A stretch of DNA of 64,000 bases, taken from IMG/VR virus record IMGVR_UViG_3300050491_000011; one strand, 5' to 3'. The first letter of the stretch is position 1; each line of letters opens with the position of its first letter. Origin of the DNA: a virus. Lineage: Duplodnaviria > Caudoviricetes. Below are positions 3,311 to 35,529 of this stretch, piece after piece. The notes beneath the pieces are model-generated. The model did no database searches. It had not been told where the DNA came from and worked only from the letters and a program-made list of their open reading frames with translations. A program made the translations under genes and the position numbers.

Positions 3311-4597
3311 TTAGTTCCTAAGGAATGTCTCTAAGAAGAGAGGAGTTGTTTTGAGTTCTTTAGCGTGAGCAGAACCCATCATTACGGCCATCATCGTGGA
3401 AGGGATCTCACCTACCATCGAACCGATGGAATCAGGATAAGCGGAGAGCTTATCACCGAAGCACACCTCACAGCAGTCTGTGCGTGGAGTGATGCAGAAC
3501 GCCGGACTGAACATAGGGTAGACTTTACCCAAGTACTGACCGATGTTTTCGGCAGACAGCTTAACCGATTCCTTGCCGTCAACAATGGTGCGGCCAATGA
3601 GGTCTTCACTGACCTTAATGTCAAGCTGATCGGTAGTACCGCAGAAGCCCTTAACTACACGGGCGTTCTGGAAGATACGACCCATCAAGTCCACGTCCTC
3701 ACCGGCGAGTGCAGTCATCGCACCCCGGAAGTAAGAACCAGCACGCAACGAGTTCACCATGTGAGGGAACTTGGTTACGTCCAGACCTTCTTGAAGAGAA
3801 GTAGTAACGAGCGTTGCACGCCCACCTTCTTCGAAGCCGGCTTCAGGACCGTGAATCTGGAACATTCGTTTCAAAGCAGTGTTCAAGGATTTACGTTTGT
3901 ACAGGAAGCCCTCAGACGGATCACCTTTAAGGTTGTCCGAATAGTCCTTAACCAACGCATCCTGAATACGTGCCTGAATAACTGGGTCGTCCAGCTGATC
4001 CTTATACAGCTCCAGCATTTCCTTCAGGATCTTATCCCGATTAGGAGACGGCTGAAGAGCATGCTCAGTAACGGATGGAACAAACATCTCGTAACCGGCC
4101 AAGTCAGATACAGCCTTACCGAAGCGCAGATAATGGCGGACGTAGATCACACCCGGCTTCTCTGGGACTTCGTTGTCAATCATCGCACCGATGATGAACC
4201 GCTCCAGACCACCGAGGTTGATTGGACCTTCGGCGTATTCAAACAGATCACCACCAGCGTAAACCAGAACACGGCTATTGAATAGCAGGTCACCCCAAGT
4301 ACCGTCGGGAAGATCCTTGGTCAGGTTCTCCACATCGCCAGCCTTGATAGGCCCGCAGGAGTCGTGATAGATGTAAGGGATCTCGTAAGGCTTAGCACCC
4401 TCCAGAACCGTCCAGCCCCACTTACCGTCACCATCAGGTACGTATACCTGAACGTTCTCCTTGGTGTGCTTCAAGCCCCACTGGAGGTCACCGTTCTTAA
4501 CGTCGTCGATAACGACGGAGAAGGCACGTAAGATCCACGCACGATTGTAGTGGACCTTTGCCTTCATCGATTGGATGAAGAAATCATACTTCCGCAT
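3311..4597 (-). CDS. multisubunit RNA polymerase beta-prime C-terminal subunit (virion RNAP, phiKZ gp80-like)
   Basis: Zn-binding C..GTTD / SPAFC..CCEVCFG and bridge/trigger-like IGSMVGEIPSTMMAVMMGSAH resembling RpoC SIGEPGTQLTMRTFH. Confidence 0.8.
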   Translation of the reverse strand: MRKYDFFIQSMKAKVHYNRAWILRAFSVVIDDVKNGDLQWGLKHTKENVQVYVPDGDGKWGWTVLEGAKPYEIPYIYHDSCGPIKAGDVENLTKDLPDGTWGDLLFNSRVLVYAGGDLFEYAEGPINLGGLERFIIGAMIDNEVPEKPGVIYVRHYLRFGKAVSDLAGYEMFVPSVTEHALQPSPNRDKILKEMLELYKDQLDDPVIQARIQDALVKDYSDNLKGDPSEGFLYKRKSLNTALKRMFQIHGPEAGFEEGGRATLVTTSLQEGLDVTKFPHMVNSLRAGSYFRGAMTALAGEDVDLMGRIFQNARVVKGFCGTTDQLDIKVSEDLIGRTIVDGKESVKLSAENIGQYLGKVYPMFSPAFCITPRTDCCEVCFGDKLSAYPDSIGSMVGEIPSTMMAVMMGSAHAKELKTTPLFLETFLRN

Positions 4598-19788: not shown

Positions 19789-20300
19789 GCAACCTCGTAT
19801 ATACACACCGTGGCTTCCCATGCGTGATGGATATCGAGATTTCCCAAGGGGCTGTTTACGAAGCCCCTGAGGTCAGCACGATCTATCGTGAACGCATGCA
19901 GCAAACTCGCCCTGGGTTTGAAGTCGAACTCGATCAGGTTGAAATGCTATTAGGTGAGTGGACTCGTACTGGTGGCTTCTTCACCCCGAGTCTGCACCCG
20001 TCGGTACGTCTGAGCGGCTCTGTGCAGTCGTTCATTGCCGAGACAGCGCTCTTCCTGACCAAGCGTATCACTCGCCGTCGCGTCAGCTTCCAAGACCGCG
20101 GTATGCTGATGAAGCAAGACATCGCTGTGGCCACACGTCTCCCAACCTTCACTGATGACGAGCGTGCGGCATTGACTGAACTCTCTGGTATGAAACCAGA
20201 AGTTCTGATCCAGTTCTGGATCACCCGGCTGGGCCTGGACGATCTGTCTTGCTCCATGCAGTTGTATGTAGGTGACCGTTCCAATTCGGACATGATGTAA
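19785..20300 (+). CDS. hypothetical virion-cluster protein
   Basis: Coupled ORF. Confidence 0.65.
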   Translation: MSNLVYTHRGFPCVMDIEISQGAVYEAPEVSTIYRERMQQTRPGFEVELDQVEMLLGEWTRTGGFFTPSLHPSVRLSGSVQSFIAETALFLTKRITRRRVSFQDRGMLMKQDIAVATRLPTFTDDERAALTELSGMKPEVLIQFWITRLGLDDLSCSMQLYVGDRSNSDMM

Positions 20301-20358
20301 TAATGTGCGTATACGCCGTCGGTTGCGCACCGACGATTAATATCCCTAGGAGTTTCAC

Positions 20359-21696
20359 ATGAGCAAATCTCTGCACGCAGCCCTTCTTCAATACGGCGTC
20401 GAATCCGGCGAGATCGAGCCAGAAGAAGTGATCTACCCGGCCGGTGAAGAAGAAATCACCGTCATCACCGACGAAACCATGTCGGACCTGGAAGAAGCCG
20501 TTGCCGAACTGGCCGACGACGTCGAAAAGGTTGAAGACCACGAAAACGGCGCCGAAAAGGTGATCGAGGCTGTTGAATCCCTGGAAGCCTACGTTGTTCA
20601 GTTCGAACGTCTGGGCGAAGCCGGCATCAGCATCAACACCACCGCGGCCAACTTCGCGCTGCAAGGCATCGTCGCTTCCCTGGAAGGCCGCAACATTCCT
20701 GCCGCCGTCTACAGCACCGAAGCCTTCGCGCTGCAAGAGTCGTTCGAAGCTGACGACAAAGAAGCCGACAAAGGTCCTGGCCTGCTGGGCAAGGGTAAAG
20801 CCCTGCTGACCAAGCTGTGGAACATGTTGAAAGCCGCTGCTGGCGCTGTGAAGCAAGCCATCATCGACTTCTTCGCCACCATGGGCAAATCCGCTGCCGC
20901 CATCAAGGCCGGCGGTGAGAAGCTGAAGCGTGTTGGCGCATCGATCAAAGACAGCAAAACTGTCTCCCTGAAAGGTGGCTCGTATAGCGCTCTGACCGTT
21001 GGCGGTTCGGTTGATCCGATCAAGGCAATGGGTGACGTTAATAGCGGCTACAAGACCGCTGTTGTTGACAACATCACCAAGCTGCGCATCGTGGTTAACC
21101 CACTGGTGAAAGCTCTGCGCAACCCAACTCCAGGCGGCGTCAAGTCGGCTGCTGAAGGTATCGACGTCAAGTCGCTGGCTTCCGCAAGCGCTTCCCTGCC
21201 AGGCGGCTTCGTTGCTCACTTCACCGTTGGTTCGGGTGAAGGCGTTGCAGCTCTGACCGGCACTACCTTCAAGATCGAGAAGACCAAAGGCGGCGAAGCT
21301 GCTAAGGACTTCAACGCTCTGTCCGGTGGTGACATCGTCAAGCTGGGTACTGCTGTTGTTGCCACTGCTGACCTGATGGTCAAAGCCAAGTCCGACGCTG
21401 ACGCCATCATCAAGTCGAACGACGAGCTGCTGTCGGCCGCTACCACCGCGATCAACGCTGCCAAGGACGACGAAGCTCAGGGCGCTGCTCGCGAGCTGCT
21501 GAAGACCGCTACCAAGCTGATGTCCGTTACCAAGGGCTTCGTACCTACCTACGTTCGCTACATGGCTACCACTGCCAAGGTTGCGTACAAAGCTGGTATG
21601 GCCTCGGCTTCGGCTCACGGCAAGAAAGACAAAGCTGAAGACGGCGCGGCTGATAAGCCAGCTGACCCAAAGCTGCTGAAAAACGAGGACAAGTAA
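20359..21696 (+). CDS. internal head protein (phiKZ gp93-like family) with acidic propeptide
   Basis: Strong SD; multiple S/A-x-E sites (SLE, STE, SFE); Ala/Lys-rich mature region. Confidence 0.7.
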   Translation: MSKSLHAALLQYGVESGEIEPEEVIYPAGEEEITVITDETMSDLEEAVAELADDVEKVEDHENGAEKVIEAVESLEAYVVQFERLGEAGISINTTAANFALQGIVASLEGRNIPAAVYSTEAFALQESFEADDKEADKGPGLLGKGKALLTKLWNMLKAAAGAVKQAIIDFFATMGKSAAAIKAGGEKLKRVGASIKDSKTVSLKGGSYSALTVGGSVDPIKAMGDVNSGYKTAVVDNITKLRIVVNPLVKALRNPTPGGVKSAAEGIDVKSLASASASLPGGFVAHFTVGSGEGVAALTGTTFKIEKTKGGEAAKDFNALSGGDIVKLGTAVVATADLMVKAKSDADAIIKSNDELLSAATTAINAAKDDEAQGAARELLKTATKLMSVTKGFVPTYVRYMATTAKVAYKAGMASASAHGKKDKAEDGAADKPADPKLLKNEDK

Positions 21697-21761
21697 AATC
21701 CGCCGAGGACGCTCCGGCGTCCGTCACCTCGAACGTTGAAAAGTTCGTTAAAGAAGGTGAC

Positions 21762-22034
21762 TTGGACCACATTCGTACAGCTCTACGTTTGGAGCTGAAC
21801 AATGCGAAGTTGTCCTCGAAGGATTTCGTTGAGATGGTTAAGTGGGTGAAGGCCAACGTCAAAGGGTTGTTCGTACCTTACGATGAAGGTTCCTTCGCCA
21901 GGGAGATGAAAGAGAGTAAGTCGGATTGGGACGAGGACTACTTCCATATGCAAGTAGTCTACCTGAAAACCAACTTCTCTGAAAAGCGTCTCCAACACCT
22001 CATCCGTGTTAACGAGCACTTGTCGAAGAAGTGA
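21762..22034 (+). CDS. small helical domain; possibly the -1 frameshift extension of the head protein
   Basis: Frame open from 21666 with no ATG/GTG/TTG until 21762; W.EDYF..Q..L.TNFS.KRL.HL pattern. Confidence 0.6.
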   Translation: MDHIRTALRLELNNAKLSSKDFVEMVKWVKANVKGLFVPYDEGSFAREMKESKSDWDEDYFHMQVVYLKTNFSEKRLQHLIRVNEHLSKK

Positions 22035-22048
22035 TCTAATCGCTTCTA

Positions 22049-22082
22049 GTATAGCGGGGGTGGAAACACCCCCGTTCTATGC
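22049..22082 (+). terminator. hairpin plus CTATG
   Basis: CGGGGGTG-GAAA-CACCCCCG-TTCTATG. Confidence 0.65.
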
Positions 22083-22142
22083 CGCGTTTATGATATAGCT
22101 TCCGCTATCAACACCATCCTACTTGTGCAACGGGTGATAACA

Positions 22143-23450
22143 ATGACACGGTTCTCCGACGAATTCAAACAGTCGATGCTTGGCGACGGTTCTTTCGAAT
22201 CCGCCATCGTCGATGAAAGCGCTTACCAAGAAACAGGCATCACTCCTGAGCTGGTTATCCAGACTCAAGAAGAACGTGCAGAGCTCGCTGATGCTCTGGA
22301 TCAGGTTGATGAAATCGGTGATGACCGTAAAGACATCGACGCTGCCGCTGCTGTAACTGACGCTGTTGTATCGGCAGTAAGCGCTGCTGAAACCATGCCC
22401 GCTGCTGCATCGGAAACCTTCGCTGAGATTGCGAACGTAACCATCGCTTCGGCTGCTCAAGTGCTGGACATGGAAATGCCTCGTCTCGAGACTGATCCAC
22501 ACACCGGCGCTATCACCGAAGCATCCATGGAAAGCTTCAGCAGCTGGTTCTCCGGCGCTGCCAAGTCCTTCATGGAAGCCAGTGCGAACTTCTTTGCTCG
22601 TATCGGTCTGGGTATCTCCCGTCTGAACGACAGCTCCCAAGGTCTGACTAAGCGCTGCATGCGCGTTCGTACCGTGATGGGTGATCGTAAAGGCAACGGC
22701 GGTAAGCCAATCAAGCTGAGCTCCGGCGTGCAGCGCCATCTGGTGCTGGGTGATGGTTATGCCTCCAGTCCTATCGAAGCTCTCACCGAGTTCTCGGTTA
22801 CCAACATCAGCGTTACTCGTGTAATCAACGAGTACCACAAGCGTCTGGGTGATCTGATCAAGGATCGTATCTTCGCAGCTGTTGCGTCTGGTCAGAAGAA
22901 CGACATCTTCGTTGACCTGAAGAGTTCCGACCTGCTGGAAGATCTCGAGAAGATCCTCGGCCGTCAGCCGAAGAACCTGATGGGTAACCAGATCTACGGG
23001 TTCAACGATCGCCCTGTCAACAAGGTGCTGACCGTAACCCTGCAATCGGGCATGCCTAACGCCATCGACCTGATCCGTCACCTCGATGCTCCGAACTCTC
23101 TGAGCAACGAACAGATCAGCGCGATGCTGGGTTCTCTGGAAGGTTTGATCGCTGAGCAACTGATTGCTCTCGAGAAGATCACCAGTCAGTCCAAGGCTTC
23201 GTTCAAGTCCCTGCAAGACGTGATCAAGAAGTTCAACGGCATGGCTGAAGAAGCTGAGATCGCTCAGCTCAAAGCCGGCGGCGCTGAAGCACCTGTTGCC
23301 ATCAACTCGATGGAACTGCTGCGCGTCGAGAACCAACTGGTTTCCGAACTCGGCCGCGTCTGCGACCGTCTGGTTGATTACCAGCGTGACATGATCGACC
23401 GTATCGACTCGTTGTTGACTTTGGTCGAAGAGTCGGTCTTCCAAGACTGA
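22143..23450 (+). CDS. internal head protein paralog
   Basis: GSFES and ASMES cleavage-type sites, acidic propeptide. Confidence 0.65.
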   Translation: MTRFSDEFKQSMLGDGSFESAIVDESAYQETGITPELVIQTQEERAELADALDQVDEIGDDRKDIDAAAAVTDAVVSAVSAAETMPAAASETFAEIANVTIASAAQVLDMEMPRLETDPHTGAITEASMESFSSWFSGAAKSFMEASANFFARIGLGISRLNDSSQGLTKRCMRVRTVMGDRKGNGGKPIKLSSGVQRHLVLGDGYASSPIEALTEFSVTNISVTRVINEYHKRLGDLIKDRIFAAVASGQKNDIFVDLKSSDLLEDLEKILGRQPKNLMGNQIYGFNDRPVNKVLTVTLQSGMPNAIDLIRHLDAPNSLSNEQISAMLGSLEGLIAEQLIALEKITSQSKASFKSLQDVIKKFNGMAEEAEIAQLKAGGAEAPVAINSMELLRVENQLVSELGRVCDRLVDYQRDMIDRIDSLLTLVEESVFQD

Positions 23451-30255: not shown

Positions 30256-31485
30256 TTACTCTGGGTCTTTGTCGCTGTACTGACGAAGACTTGCGTTGGC
30301 GTGCAGATACGCCGACTGAGCAATGCCACCCAGAACCGGGAGGATGGTGCGAGGACCAGTACCGATACGCCCCATGATCTTCGATACGATTGCCGGACCT
30401 TGCTTAACCCGGTTCTTGTCGATGCCGCCGCTCATGGACTTCAGGTCGCTGATAGCGATACGCAGATCACGCTTGATGTCGCCCATCAGCTTACCAACGT
30501 TACCGAGACCACGGCAGATGTCACGGATCTCGCCGAAACCGCAGACGAAGGTGCCTTCATTGATCTTGGTGGACGAGCGGGTAACTTTGATAGCGGCGTT
30601 CAGCACGTTGATATCGTTGTCACCAGCGGATACGGCCACGTCATTCAGACCTGGGTACTCGTAGAACTCGTTGGTGCCGTTCGGAGTGCCTTGCGGCAGA
30701 TCGGCTTCAGCGACTTCCTGACCACCCTTCAACTTGTCAGTGACAGTCTTGGAGAGCTTGGAGTACATCTTGATCCAGTCTTCAGTCAGGGTCTTACTGA
30801 AGTTGCAGGCGGTGTCCAAAGACTGAGCTGGTGTCAGGGTCTTCGAACTGGTCTGCAAGTAAGCAGCCCACTTAGGCGCGCCGTCGAACTTGTCTTTCTT
30901 CAGAGTGCCAGCGGCCTGGTTCTGACGAGAGATCAAGTTGTCGCGCATCTTGTAGACAGCGCTTTCGGTCTTGCCGTAGTTGTTCATCAGACCGGTCAGC
31001 ATCTCGGCCAGCTTAGCGCAAGCGGCTTTGAAAGCTTCCCACATGCGAGCGATCAGGCCTTTCGATTTGCCTTCAGTTTCCTGACGGTTCTCGAAGCTGG
31101 TCTGATGTACGCCGATGGATTCGAACGACGCAGAGAACACCGCATCAGGAACTGGCAGGTCAGCGGCACGCAGGATGTTACCCACACCCAGTTGGTATTG
31201 ACGTGCAGTCTTCGAGTTCCAGTTATCAGCCGGTACGCGTTCCATGAAGCTCGAAACGAACGACTCCAGGGATACGGTTACTTCAGCGATGCTTTCAACG
31301 TTGCGGCTACCTTCAGCGATTTCAACGTCGCTAGCAACAGCGTCGGATACGCAATCAGCCATCTCGTTGATGACCACGTCAGTTGGGTTCTCTTCCAACA
31401 TCATGGCGTCAGCGGCTTGCTGTAGTGGATCATCGTGTACAATCATGGAAAAGACCTCAGTTGTAAGCGTTGGCACATTCGTCAA
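30256..31485 (-). CDS. internal head protein paralog 1 of tandem array
   Basis: SLES/ASFES sites, then KSKGLIARMW helix. Confidence 0.7.
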   Translation of the reverse strand: MTNVPTLTTEVFSMIVHDDPLQQAADAMMLEENPTDVVINEMADCVSDAVASDVEIAEGSRNVESIAEVTVSLESFVSSFMERVPADNWNSKTARQYQLGVGNILRAADLPVPDAVFSASFESIGVHQTSFENRQETEGKSKGLIARMWEAFKAACAKLAEMLTGLMNNYGKTESAVYKMRDNLISRQNQAAGTLKKDKFDGAPKWAAYLQTSSKTLTPAQSLDTACNFSKTLTEDWIKMYSKLSKTVTDKLKGGQEVAEADLPQGTPNGTNEFYEYPGLNDVAVSAGDNDINVLNAAIKVTRSSTKINEGTFVCGFGEIRDICRGLGNVGKLMGDIKRDLRIAISDLKSMSGGIDKNRVKQGPAIVSKIMGRIGTGPRTILPVLGGIAQSAYLHANASLRQYSDKDPE

Positions 31486-32686
31486 TGTAACGAATGCTTG
31501 CCTTGATGGTTTTGAGGAAGTACGGGGTGGAGTTAATCCAGCCCTGTGCTGCCAAGCTACATGCTTTGTTCAGGGTGCCGAGTGCAGTCCGGAGTACTGC
31601 CACATCAGTCTTCTCGTTGTGCTCTGTAACGCTCTTCGAGAGTTTGCCGACCTTATCGGTAATGGCTGTGAAAGCACTCATCTCACGCTTGAGCTGATGG
31701 AGGACATTGAGCCCATCATTGCAAACGGAGACACCTGTCTTCAGTTCAGCTACAGAAAGCAGATCAGCTTTCGTGTTGTTGACCATGGCAGCTTGATGGA
31801 TCTTGATCTTAGTCCCCATGATCGGGTTATCGCCAGCACCCGGAGTAAGCTCCAGATAGTGGTTCGGCGTAACGTCGAGCTTGATCGCCTTAACGGAGAC
31901 AGACTTCTTCGCAAACTCGGTAATACTCTTACCGATCTGATCAGCCTTTACTCCAGCGATATTGGTTGGCAGCGGGAACTCAACCAAACTCTTCCAGCCA
32001 TTACGCCATTCAACCGCGAAGTCTTCGAAGACAGCAACCGTCTGAACAACGTGACGGCTAGGCGGTTCGATACGAGAGTGTTTGTCCGTAAGATAGGCAG
32101 CAGCCTTACCCACGTTAACATCCTCGACCGTAGCCTTAGCGTCAGCCTTGATTGAGGAGACCTTCTCCTTAACCTTCTCGAGATAGTTCTCGACAGACTT
32201 GCCGCTGTCAGTCAGGTTCTCCCAGAAGGACACAAACGCATCAGCCACAGCTTTCATCGCCGTGTGCAGCCACGTCAGAATACGACGGAGGATACCTTCC
32301 TTCTTCTCAGCCACTTCAGTGCTGTAGTTGCGGTTACCTGCTTCGAACGAAGGTACGATCATTGTCACGGGGATGTAGATATCTGCGTTAACGAGAATGG
32401 CTTCAACCGACAGACGTAGAAGATCTGCGTCGCCTTCATCGAGTCCATCCGCGCCGCATGCAGCGATACTCTTGTCCACCAATTCAGTCAGGTTATCAGC
32501 CACACCAGCAGCAGTGGAGATCTCATCGGAATGACCCTCCACTACAGCCGCAATATGAGACAGCTTCTCGATATTGCCGTCCGCATCACCCGAAGCCGCG
32601 ATAATGGAATCCTCGAGGCTCAGGTGAATGATCGGACGTGGGGTCGACGCCGACTGTGCGAGTCTTTGAAGAATGCTAGCAGTCAT
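31457..32686 (-). CDS. internal head protein paralog 2
   Basis: LSVEAIL..IVPSFE..YSTE..KKEGIL.RIL.W shared motif. Confidence 0.7.
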   Translation of the reverse strand: MTASILQRLAQSASTPRPIIHLSLEDSIIAASGDADGNIEKLSHIAAVVEGHSDEISTAAGVADNLTELVDKSIAACGADGLDEGDADLLRLSVEAILVNADIYIPVTMIVPSFEAGNRNYSTEVAEKKEGILRRILTWLHTAMKAVADAFVSFWENLTDSGKSVENYLEKVKEKVSSIKADAKATVEDVNVGKAAAYLTDKHSRIEPPSRHVVQTVAVFEDFAVEWRNGWKSLVEFPLPTNIAGVKADQIGKSITEFAKKSVSVKAIKLDVTPNHYLELTPGAGDNPIMGTKIKIHQAAMVNNTKADLLSVAELKTGVSVCNDGLNVLHQLKREMSAFTAITDKVGKLSKSVTEHNEKTDVAVLRTALGTLNKACSLAAQGWINSTPYFLKTIKASIRYIDECANAYN

Positions 32687-32699
32687 TGTCGGTCACCGG

Positions 32700-34130
32700 T
32701 TACTTGGCGTGGTCGTAGGTATTGCCCTGGTTGTTGCCAGCAGCATTCGCACGATAGCGCTCAGGACGAACCACTTCAGGTTCATCATTCTTGGTATCGC
32801 TACCACCAGCGCCACCTTTGATCTTGCTGGCCGACAGGTCGCAATAGCGCATGTTGGCTTTGAGCATCATCAGGAAGTCAGGGACGGCTTTGGTCCAGCC
32901 CTGAGACATGCAGCGGCAACCGCCGAGGATACCGTTGACCCACTGGCGCAGCTCAGGATCGATCTTCGCACCGGCCATGGATTCAGCCATCTTCAGACGG
33001 CTCAACAGAGTGTTGCAGGTCTTGACGACCGCATCAGCGCTCTTGGTCCATGCCGATACATCTTTCTCGATGACCTTCATGATGTCGAGGGCTTTCAGAG
33101 CCAGCGTGCAACCGCTCAGCATTTCAGCGTGCTTCAGCACCTTACCGGTGTGAGCAGCCTTTTCCTTGATGACAGCGCGATGCAACTCAACCTTGGCGCC
33201 GTTGAGAGGCCACTTGCTATCTTCGCCCGGAGTCAGCTTGATGCTGCTGGTTTCGGAGATCTTGATGTCCTTCAGCTTGGACATGTCGTTCTTCATCGAA
33301 CGGGTCAGCTCAGCTGCCGCAAGGTTCAGGAACTCCATGATCGGGCCAACATCGTTCATGTTGCTTGGCGGCTTGATGTCGATCAGATCTTCGAACGCGC
33401 CATGCCAGGCCGAGGTGAAGTTCTTGAACAGACCCATGTTGGTCTGAACGATCGAAGCAGGTGGCTTAACCTGACCAGAGCCGTTGGAGCAGTACGCGCC
33501 AATGCTTGCACCGAGGTTGATGGTGCCTTCTTCGGTTTCGCCTTTGTTCTTGTTGATCTTCGCCAGTACGCCTTCGCCGTACTTGCCGATCGACTTGCTG
33601 TTGTTGAACAGGCGATGCCAGAACTTGGCAACCATGTCCATCAAGCTCTTGAACGCTTCAGCTACCCAGGCGAGGATACGGCCGATAACGCCCTTCTTCT
33701 TTTCTTCAGCTTCAGTCGAGTAGTCCGCACGGCTAGCGCAGGATTCGAAAGAAGGAACCACGACGCCGACTGGGATACCCAGACCGGAGACCTTCAGGAC
33801 AGCTTCCACCGACAGGGTCATCAGTGCAGCACCTTCTTCGGTGATGCCGCTGTCGCCGTAAGTTTCGATGGTCTGATCAACGATCGACTCGATGGAGCCT
33901 GCCGCAGCTTCAGCTTTATCGATGGAGGCGTTTTGCCCACTGATGTCTTCAGCGATCGCATTGATCTCGCCGACTTCGGCCATGATGTCTTGCGACAGCT
34001 GTTCGAGGTCATCGCCTTCGACCGGTGGTGCTGGTGGTTCCTCGAAAGGAAGGTTGGCGAGGTCCGGCGCAGCTGGAAGCTCGGACGATTCAACGCCATA
34101 GTTGGCAAGTTGCTGCAAGATAGATCGCAT
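32700..34130 (-). CDS. internal head protein paralog 3
   Basis: Start MRSILQQLANYGVES after AAGGA SD; VVPSFES..DYSTEAEEKKKGVIGRIL.W. Confidence 0.7.
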   Translation of the reverse strand: MRSILQQLANYGVESSELPAAPDLANLPFEEPPAPPVEGDDLEQLSQDIMAEVGEINAIAEDISGQNASIDKAEAAAGSIESIVDQTIETYGDSGITEEGAALMTLSVEAVLKVSGLGIPVGVVVPSFESCASRADYSTEAEEKKKGVIGRILAWVAEAFKSLMDMVAKFWHRLFNNSKSIGKYGEGVLAKINKNKGETEEGTINLGASIGAYCSNGSGQVKPPASIVQTNMGLFKNFTSAWHGAFEDLIDIKPPSNMNDVGPIMEFLNLAAAELTRSMKNDMSKLKDIKISETSSIKLTPGEDSKWPLNGAKVELHRAVIKEKAAHTGKVLKHAEMLSGCTLALKALDIMKVIEKDVSAWTKSADAVVKTCNTLLSRLKMAESMAGAKIDPELRQWVNGILGGCRCMSQGWTKAVPDFLMMLKANMRYCDLSASKIKGGAGGSDTKNDEPEVVRPERYRANAAGNNQGNTYDHAK

Positions 34131-34167: not shown

Positions 34168-35529
34168 TTAAGCGGCTTTGGAGTACGCCGATGCACTGGC
34201 GCTGACGTAGCCATCGAGTGCTGACTTAACAGCCCAGATAGTTTTGATCAACTTAGGAGGAAGCAACCCAAGATCGTAGACGATGTCAACGGCCAATTTG
34301 TAGGCGTCGCACGCTTCTTTGATCGAGGTGGTATCTTCGTTGGCCGCTTTCTTCTTGGTGTACAGCGAGTTAAGCTGGGCACTCATGTCGTAAAGCTTGG
34401 TAGCCAGACCGTCGATTTCTTCAGCAGCATCCTGAAGAGGTTTGATGAAGTCACCAACATGGTCGGTCCACGCCGGAACTGCATCGGTGTAGTCTTCCAT
34501 ATCCTGAGCGCTGAGAGCTGGATATTCACCACCCTCGGCTTCTTTGTGAACGACCATAGCGCTGGTCAAGTTCATGGTGTTGCCTTTCTTCTCGCCAGTC
34601 AGGACGATGTCGATGTTCTGGCAGATGTTGAACTCGACTTCCTTGTTCTGCGAAAGGCCGACCGCATTAACCAGAGCAGTGAACACACGAGGGAGTTCGC
34701 TTTCCTTGGTAGGTTGTACGCCATTTACGATCTGACTTACCTTCCGAACGATCTCCAGAACGCGGGAAGCGGATTCCTTGCCGAAACCTTTGAGATTCTT
34801 GAGGGTCTCAGTAGGCTTCTTAGCCCGGCCGTCTTGTCCGATGATGAACTTCGGATCTTTGACAGTGACCTTAGTAGAACTGGAAGGCGCAGCAGGCTTC
34901 GGAGTTTCCTTTACCGGCTCTGGTTTCTTCTCAGGTTCTTTCTTCGATGCAGGAGAGACTGGTTTCTCAGCCGGCTTCTCAACAGGCTTCTCCGGTTCCT
35001 TTTCCTCTGTAGGTTCAGGTTCCGACTTACCGTTAACGGCGTCATCAACCTTCTTCTTCAGAGCTTCGTTCTTTGCCTGGTCGTTCTTCTTGAACAGACC
35101 GAGCTTTTGGAAGAAGGCTTTCAACATCCCCATCAGAGTAGTGAAGGTACGCTTGATCCATGCCCAGATCTTGCCGATGAACCCCTCACTCTTCTCCTCA
35201 GCTTCCGTGGAGTAGTTCTCCTCGTTACTGGATTCAAAGGACGGTGCAATCATCGTGACTGGAAGATCGAGATCCGACGCCATCAACACCGACTCCATGC
35301 AGACACGATAAAGCGCAGCACGCTCTACGTCCATGGATGGCTTATCTTTGAGGAAAGCATCGCGAATGTTCGTCACCGAAGCGAGTGCTGTACGAGCGCG
35401 AACAATCTGGTTTTGAAGCGCATCGATCTCACGGAACTCCGATTGGAGATCCACGCTTTCGAAGCTATAAGTAGCCTCTACTCGTTCGATGTTATTAGTA
35501 GCAAGTTGTTTCAAAATGCTCGCGGTCAT
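34168..35529 (-). CDS. internal head protein paralog 4 with P/E/K-rich linker
   Basis: MTASILKQLA start; IAPSFES..NYSTEAEEKSEGFIGKIWAW. Confidence 0.7.
   Translation of the reverse strand: MTASILKQLATNNIERVEATYSFESVDLQSEFREIDALQNQIVRARTALASVTNIRDAFLKDKPSMDVERAALYRVCMESVLMASDLDLPVTMIAPSFESSNEENYSTEAEEKSEGFIGKIWAWIKRTFTTLMGMLKAFFQKLGLFKKNDQAKNEALKKKVDDAVNGKSEPEPTEEKEPEKPVEKPAEKPVSPASKKEPEKKPEPVKETPKPAAPSSSTKVTVKDPKFIIGQDGRAKKPTETLKNLKGFGKESASRVLEIVRKVSQIVNGVQPTKESELPRVFTALVNAVGLSQNKEVEFNICQNIDIVLTGEKKGNTMNLTSAMVVHKEAEGGEYPALSAQDMEDYTDAVPAWTDHVGDFIKPLQDAAEEIDGLATKLYDMSAQLNSLYTKKKAANEDTTSIKEACDAYKLAVDIVYDLGLLPPKLIKTIWAVKSALDGYVSASASAYSKAA

Follow-up and report, generated by a model that had tools for sequence, protein, structure and literature searches.

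How is the protein encoded by an open reading frame (ORF) that overlaps the 3′ end of a giant-phage head gene in the −1 frame produced: as a small product with its own start, or as an extension of the head protein? The locus raising this question occupies positions 20,359–22,034 of a 64,000-nucleotide stretch (hereafter, the window) of the virus record IMGVR_UViG_3300050491_000011, a 188-kb metagenomic record of an uncultured phage that is ~75% complete. Profile searches matched genes of the window to core virion families of the phiKZ-like jumbo phages, and the closest cultured phages showed only ~30% identity, measured in a neighbouring virion protein. Neither blastn with 20300–22150 nor tblastn with the upstream protein gave a match in 50,697 phage records. 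An earlier reading of the letters alone (the original prediction) had proposed that a −1 frameshift appends a domain, also occurring in bacteria, to a major head protein. Comparative evidence supported the appending of such a domain, of ~115–120 residues, by a −1 frameshift, while the type of gene and the slip site had to be revised. We consider a programmed −1 frameshift that adds the domain to an internal head protein (IP) to be the best explanation of the locus, with a probability of roughly 0.78. The set of observations comprises a block resembling one transcription unit, a −1 overlap containing an efficient slippery heptamer, conservation of the frame and motifs, a domain that depends on upstream codons and lacks a start codon of its own, and single-frame fusions of the same two parts in other phages.

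The zero frame ends with ...CCA AAG CTG CTG AAA AAC GAG GAC AAG TAA, whose stop codon is located at 21694–21696. The −1 frame is open for 123 codons (21666–22034) and terminates at 22032–22034, which places the downstream ORF in the −1 frame with an overlap of 31 nt. Direct reading confirmed every coordinate originally given for this gene end, for the G AAA AAC at 21678–21684, and for the open −1 frame. Since the −1 frame is closed by a TGA read at 21663–21665 (+ strand), directly upstream of the first slippery motif, a slip is usable only within 21666–21693, ahead of the zero-frame stop that begins at 21694. The open part of the −1 frame begins with the first base of C_CCA_AAG (21666–21672, +), a canonical in-phase X_XXY_YYZ heptamer located 7 sense codons before the zero-frame stop. 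The motif scan, the relatives, and natural variants all point to it as the likeliest slip site. In Escherichia coli, efficiency is highest with C_CCA_AAG, G_GGA_AAG, and A_AAA_AAG among the heptamers and with A_AAG among the tetramers, while G_GGA_AAC is weak yet used by insertion sequence elements (PMC4066793). A slip on C_CCA_AAG is predicted to yield ...ADPK followed by AAEKRGQVK..., so that the extension of 120 codons plus stop (21672–22034, +) would follow 438 residues of the head protein in a fused product of 558 residues. The original prediction had overlooked this heptamer and assigned the slip to G_AAA_AAC; that site is the less likely one in view of the relatives, which use G_GGA_AAG, G_GGA_AAC, or C_CCA_AAG.

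The first ATG, GTG, or TTG of the −1 frame is the TTG at 21762–21764 (+), as the ORF listing confirms, and the codons before it also include no CTG, ATT, ATC, or ATA. A purine-rich GAAGGTG ends just 2 nt before this TTG, for which a poorly spaced Shine–Dalgarno (SD) sequence had been described originally. The 32 open codons upstream of the TTG are not rare by themselves, as (61/64)^32 is ~0.2; the signal that appears above chance is the homology upstream of the TTG together with the frame and slippery motifs conserved in relatives. A tblastn search of the −1 frame translation against cultured phages matched Kosakonia phage Kc263 and Edwardsiella phage pEt-SU, for which the alignments start at residues 9 and 16, respectively, of the 122-residue translation, where the TTG is residue 33. 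The homology starts at ~21729, 33 nt upstream of the TTG, and extends over a conserved five-helix domain of ~101–105 residues (21729–22031, +), which was delineated from two alignments, 232 homologues obtained in an exhaustive HMMER search, AlphaFold2 modeling, and the ratio of nonsynonymous to synonymous substitution rates (dN/dS). Alignments of 19 and 60 sequences gave the consensus SxNLxKF[IV]xEGDL..IRTALRLELN...W..DY...Q.VYLKTNFSEKR..HL, with which the segment SNVEKFVKEGD, located upstream of the TTG in the window, agrees. AlphaFold2 run on the 60-sequence alignment produced five helices with a predicted local distance difference test score (pLDDT) of 95 and a predicted template modeling score (pTM) of 0.86, of which helix 1 is the segment upstream of the TTG. 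Because both the homology and the confident fold begin at ~21729, helix 1 would be lost if translation began at the TTG, which follows helix 1 within the conserved domain and most likely just codes for the conserved Leu of "GDL". The check on where homology starts, proposed with the original prediction, thus located it upstream of the TTG and not at it.

The domain matched no entry of Pfam, PHROGs, NCBIfam, or PADLOC. A Foldseek search of its model against the Protein Data Bank (PDB) gave no match at E ≤ 0.001, and a PDB profile search detected designed repeat proteins only (E ≥ 0.0016). The best VIA-align match had a Z of 6.2 with unrelated helical proteins, which is the noise level for helical folds, and a feature search of the ESM Atlas led to unnamed clusters only.

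The gene to which the domain would be attached (20359–21696, +) encodes 445 residues and starts with an ATG that has GGAG 8 nt upstream. Residues 45–409 matched the phiKZ_IP family PF12699 with 65.7 bits against a Pfam cut-off of 27, and a second match was obtained to phrog_2497, an internal head protein family. Its syntenic orthologues in four related lineages (L003, L004, L007, and L025) are 33–38% identical. As the gene matches only internal-head-protein families, it is assigned here to the internal head proteins and does not encode the major capsid protein, and the 65.7-bit match to PF12699 upheld the word "head" of the original label "major head protein" at the expense of "major". In phiKZ, the PF12699 members gp93, 94, 95, 162, and 163 are expected to build the inner body and are considered candidates for ejection; in SPN3US, the abundant, processed proteins gp53 and gp54 correspond to them (PMC5694885). 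By homology, the IP of the window would also be located in the capsid interior, processed by the prohead protease, and ejected.

The same split arrangement was found in nine lineages, comprising the window, L003/L015, L026, L004 (with L005 and L006), L012, L007 (with L008 and L009), L025, L027, and L028/L029. Their upstream genes are either the syntenic orthologues at 33–38% identity or proteins matching the C-terminal end of PF12699, and the domain follows in the −1 frame in all nine. An in-phase X_XXA_AAZ heptamer is present 0–7 codons before the stop in 7/9 lineages, which employ three different motifs. Besides the window, these are G_GGA_AAC in L003 and L026 (0 sense codons to the stop) and in L012 (1 codon), G_GGA_AAG in L004 (1 codon) and L028 (5 codons), and C_CCA_AAG in L027 (1 codon). 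Such heptamers occupy 7 of 99 in-phase positions in the overlap zones, compared with 1 of 2977 in the rest of the same genes, a 200-fold enrichment; the probability of finding at least 7 of 9 lineages with one is ~6 × 10^−13 if the lineages are assumed to be independent. Synonymous sites are saturated between most pairs of these lineages, and the dN/dS of the domain in the closest pair (L003 versus L026) is 0.12, indicating that the lineages are old and that the domain is under purifying selection.

In other jumbo phages, the two parts are encoded in one frame. The matches in Kc263 (QYN80000.1, 333 residues) and pEt-SU (pETSU_029, 345 residues) are single ORFs in which the domain forms the C-terminal third and the N-terminal part matches PF12699. 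Fourteen representative clusters of 446–585 residues carry a PF12699 match above the cut-off and the domain in the same frame, and the domain is located at the extreme C-terminus in 11 of them; L014 contains a further fusion of this kind. The predicted 558-residue product falls inside the length range of these fusions. The fusions of Kc263, pEt-SU, P0026, P0075, and P0117 resemble the window in the order of their parts, a PF12699 region followed by the domain. They differ in that every copy of the fused protein bears the domain, whereas in the clade of the window the domain would be optional, with its dose determined by the efficiency of the shift. Among other clusters, P0054, P0103, and P0124 contain the domain mid-protein within the IP sequence instead of at the end. 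Public labels mask the fusions at the loci L001:3392-4393 and L002:3299-4336: the IP–domain protein of pEt-SU is annotated as a "Zn-ribbon domain containing protein", and neighbouring genes of Kc263, apparently IP-like paralogues, are labeled "putative apolipophorin-III" or "putative apolipoprotein E".

Genuine genes of these phages start with ATG preceded by GGAG 7–9 nt upstream. The starts called for the domain ORFs are GTG (L004, L012, L007), TTG (window, L003, L025, L028), or an internal ATG (L026, L027); they fall at differing alignment columns and lack the GGAG context. Between the IP stop and the domain, the scan detected neither a + strand terminator-like site nor a sigma-70-like promoter, an observation of little weight given that these phages rely on polymerases of their own.

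According to the mechanism proposed here, most ribosomes would stop at the TAA at 21694 and release the 445-residue internal head protein. A minority would slip back by one nucleotide, with C_CCA_AAG as the likeliest site, and continue to 22034, generating the 558-residue protein composed of the IP part, a linker, and the domain. The IP part would then carry the domain into the prohead, where a few copies per virion may lie with the DNA and could be ejected into the cell, and the frameshift would set the ratio of plain to cargo-bearing protein. The fused protein, its packaging and ejection, and the shift efficiency are all deduced here from sequence comparison. The linker between the IP part and the domain is ~20 residues long in the predicted fusion and is regarded as flexible. 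As a separate observation, the linker in the −1 frame (21672–21728, AAEKRGQVKSAEDAPASVT) holds AAE and SAE, which fit the S/A/G-x-E specificity of prohead proteases of the phiKZ type; if cut at these sites, the linker would release the domain within the head, although the motifs may be due to chance. As a general feature of the linkers, this [SAG]-x-E motif was set aside as too short and inconsistent, L004 having SPE and L003, L012, L027, and L028 nothing comparable.

A stimulator is usual for −1 frameshifting, though not obligatory; it is normally either a hairpin or pseudoknot 5–9 nt after the motif or an SD-like sequence upstream of it. Long stem-loops beginning 5–8 nt after the motif were predicted in six relatives, with z-scores from −2 to −5.8: −25.4 kcal/mol (z = −2.05) in L003, −25.6 kcal/mol (z = −2.7) in L026, −33.7 kcal/mol (z = −4.3) in L007, −31.3 kcal/mol (z = −3.7) in L004, −34.6 kcal/mol (z = −5.8) in L012, and −26.9 kcal/mol (z = −2.9) in L027. 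Compensatory changes affect 1 base pair in L003/L026/L007 and 3 pairs in L004/L012, which are small counts in a region that is also protein-coding. L028 has no hairpin, but AAGGAG is located 7 nt upstream of its motif. In the window, region 21685–21760 folds with −24.6 kcal/mol (z = −2.3) and contains a 6-bp GC-rich hairpin with a 4-nt loop, GGACGC-TCCG-GCGTCC (21707–21722, +). A second predicted stem-loop (21724–21760, +) covers the codons of helix 1 at a position equivalent to the hairpins of the relatives; the stem-loops of the window are farther from the slip site because its linker is longer. The first hairpin lies where the original prediction had placed it and is indeed farther downstream than typical stimulators, so far (34 nt after CCCAAAG and 22 nt after GAAAAAC) that it does not qualify as a classical one.

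Several of these observations weigh against the frameshift. The window has no hairpin at the usual distance from either motif and no SD-like sequence upstream, and this lack of a classical stimulator is the main weakness of the proposal at this locus; the shift efficiency in the window may be low for this reason. Two of the nine lineages depart from the heptamer pattern, L025 having only the tetramer A_AAG and no heptamer (0 sense codons to the stop) and L007 only the non-canonical G_GGG_AAG (0 codons). The lineages are related, so that the probability calculated above overstates their independence, and the domain tree, in which 31/60 forks are open, is too poorly resolved to count the origins of the split state. 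In L007, moreover, the GTG overlaps the stop codon (GTGA) and has GAGG 4 nt upstream, making independent or coupled initiation a fair alternative in L007 alone.

Among the competing explanations, the nearest is that the frameshift is real but takes place on G_AAA_AAC (21678–21684, +), stimulated by the hairpin at 21707–21722, which we regard as unlikely. This heptamer is in phase within the overlap, 3 sense codons before the stop; re-pairing in the ribosomal peptidyl site from AAA to GAA could retain a G:U pair at the first position, and the motif is nearer to the hairpin than CCCAAAG is. It is, however, not a canonical X_XXY_YYZ motif, having G at the first position, and is used by no relative; motifs of the A_AAA_AAC type work poorly in E. 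coli (PMC4066793), and 22 nt is far outside the usual spacing. The junction is spanned by contigs of two independent samples, X5 (21590–21788; anaerobic digester, 2024) and X6 (21598–21783; soil, 2019), which differ from the window by substitutions only, with no indel. In X5, A21681G changes AAA to AAG, and G_AAA_AAC thereby becomes G_AAG_AAC, so the motif is destroyed while the rest of the junction is kept; the change is synonymous in the IP frame and replaces K with E in the −1 frame. It was seen in a single low-depth contig (depth 3.4), and the support it lends is modest. The other variants are 21642 C>A (X5) and 21651 T>C (X5 and X6), and C_CCA_AAG is intact in both samples. These data make C_CCA_AAG the most likely slip site, to which G_AAA_AAC may contribute as a secondary one. 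Two further runs (X2 and X3), of which half of each was read, gave contigs that do not reach the junction, and the RNA runs found contained only trace shares of the window sequence.

A somewhat less probable explanation is that the domain is a separate small gene, translated from the TTG at 21762, from a non-canonical codon, or by termination–reinitiation, and that its −1 relation to the IP gene merely reflects tight packing. Gene callers indeed give separate ORFs of 81–115 residues in the relatives, and the GAAGGTG just before the TTG is purine-rich. Against this, the window, L003, L025, and L027 have no ATG, GTG, or TTG upstream of the conserved helix 1, and the putative starts encode conserved or variable internal residues at different alignment columns, none of them in the context of an ATG 7–9 nt after GGAG. 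A separate gene would also leave unexplained the 200-fold enrichment of heptamers and the presence of the −1 frame in 9/9 lineages. In single-frame phage copies with a Pfam-recognisable partner, the domain is always fused to an IP protein, and no free-standing phage copy with an ATG and an SD sequence was found among the loci examined.

That the locus is a broken gene or an error, in which a single-frame ancestor lost its frame by a 1-nt indel through mutation or assembly and left an untranslated remnant, is very improbable: single-frame fusions are common in other jumbo phages and the window comes from a metagenomic record, but contigs of the two other samples cross the junction in the same frame without an indel, which excludes an assembly artefact, and in nine lineages whose synonymous sites are saturated the domain has remained open, conserved, and under purifying selection (dN/dS 0.12 in the closest pair), whereas a decaying remnant would gather stops and would not keep slippery heptamers. 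Transcriptional slippage is unlikely as well, the longest homopolymer at the junction being five A.

The mechanism of the proposed frameshift is the ordinary −1 frameshift of bacteria and phages, and it is the gene context that is new; our literature search found neither a frameshift in PF12699 genes nor recoding that adds cargo to internal proteins of jumbo phages. In the lambda G/GT system, which uses G_GGA_AAG, the slip likewise takes place close to the end of a morphogenesis gene, on a heptamer of the X_XXA_AAG type located a few codons from the stop, and a fixed minority of the protein is extended at its C-terminus. Xu, Hendrix and Duda reportedly described in 2004 that diverged phages retain the arrangement of this tail chaperone frameshift while its sequence has changed. 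The window gene differs from lambda G in being a PF12699 internal head protein with no tape-measure gene after it, and its extension would fold independently and has bacterial homologues. In T7, a −1 shift near the end of the capsid gene produces a minor longer form (10B) that is built into the capsid together with the major form (10A). The window likewise has a head gene whose last codons permit a −1 shift. T7 gene 10, however, encodes the major shell protein, whereas the window protein would be internal and probably ejected, and the 120-residue extension of the window holds a five-helix fold known from single-frame phage fusions and bacterial proteins. In T4, the internal protein IPI* is injected with the DNA and acts against the restriction enzyme GmrSD. 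The resemblance to T4 is one of concept only, namely a head-carried protein that is delivered with the genome and acts at the onset of infection. The T4 internal proteins and Alt are packaged through a capsid targeting sequence (PMC5694885). This targeting relies on a short, cleaved N-terminal peptide in place of a fusion to a large paralogous head protein, involves no frameshift, and has no sequence relation to the present system.

The bacterial hypothetical proteins mentioned in the original prediction do exist, as was verified by HMMER and tblastn matches. Most homologues are ~290 residues long and consist of the domain in two tandem copies followed by a hydrophobic (transmembrane) helix at the C-terminus; such a protein is here termed the adaptor. 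The phage domain is 36–53% identical to the second of the tandem copies (phmmer E of 5 × 10^−32 to 1 × 10^−20). A tblastn scan with one genome per species detected homologues in Pseudomonas, Paraburkholderia, Halomonas, Pseudidiomarina, and Trinickia with 38–53% identity to the phage domain. In 23/23 bacterial and metagenomic loci (L031:1423-10554 of Pseudomonas fluorescens, L030, L032–L043, and L016–L024), the adaptor gene has the gene of a large dynamin-like GTPase on one side and that of a HerA/FtsK-type ATPase (~1100 residues) on the other. The cassette usually opens with a WYL regulator followed by a small dynamin-like GTPase and ends with an LHH (HNH/EndoVII-type) nuclease, and its gene order was the same at all 23 loci. 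PADLOC gave weak LeoBC matches along with HerA and mad8 matches on this cassette, which is not a defined system in PADLOC v2. A candidate for a free-standing phage gene with an ATG and an SD sequence, L010/L011 (P0004), was set aside, its frame being continuous with an upstream copy, which makes it a contig-end fragment of a two-domain bacterial adaptor.

Unlike the bacterial adaptor with its two copies and transmembrane helix, the phage copy is single and soluble, and would be attached to a head protein. It ends with ...HLSKK without a hydrophobic tail and is flanked by head genes, and on these grounds it is taken as a homologue of one module and not as a member of the cassette. In the poorly resolved domain tree, in which the rows labeled bacterial were assigned by exclusion, the IP-fused phage copies P0113 and P0124 group with bacterial-type copies, and not with the remaining phage copies, with SH-like approximate likelihood ratio test (SH-aLRT) supports of 98 and 90. 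These groupings hint at repeated exchange of the domain between bacteria and jumbo phages. It is conceivable, though we hold it to be doubtful, that the frameshift doses an injected counter-defence cargo, in which an adaptor domain, captured repeatedly by these phages, would act as a soluble decoy and, prior to formation of the phage nucleus, titrate a partner of the adaptor, either a dynamin-like GTPase or the HerA-type ATPase. Any anti-defence role of the domain is speculative.

Downstream of the domain, an 8-bp GC-rich hairpin, CGGGGGTG-GAAA-CACCCCCG (22055–22074, +), is located 20 nt after the domain stop and is possibly the end of a transcription unit common to the IP and the domain. It escaped the terminator scan because of its weak T run; a comparable hairpin with a T run follows the domain stop of L003 at ~3410–3440. 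PF12699 was matched six times in the record, with four scores exceeding the Pfam cut-off. Apart from the IP gene itself, PF12699-like matches in the window are found at 22278–22721 (+), 30721–31344 (−), 31481–32548 (−), 33510–33980 (−), and 35011–35424 (−), three of these five exceeding the cut-off. The gene directly 3′ of the domain (~22143–23450) is one of the PF12699-like matches, a weak one.

If the frameshift occurs as proposed, present gene calls split one recoded gene into an IP and an orphan ORF of 80–115 residues with a false start, and the longer product is absent from the annotations. The finding would add a recoding site to the inner-body and ejection proteins of giant phages. It suggests a form of cargo variation, in which the IP would serve as a carrier, C-terminal domains would be exchangeable, and the frameshift would set the dose. 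The link to bacteria leads to a testable hypothesis about both partners, namely that the domain of the phage may be an inhibitor and that the cassette may defend against phages. If the decoy reading were true, it would also be the first functional hint of an anti-phage role for the bacterial cassette.

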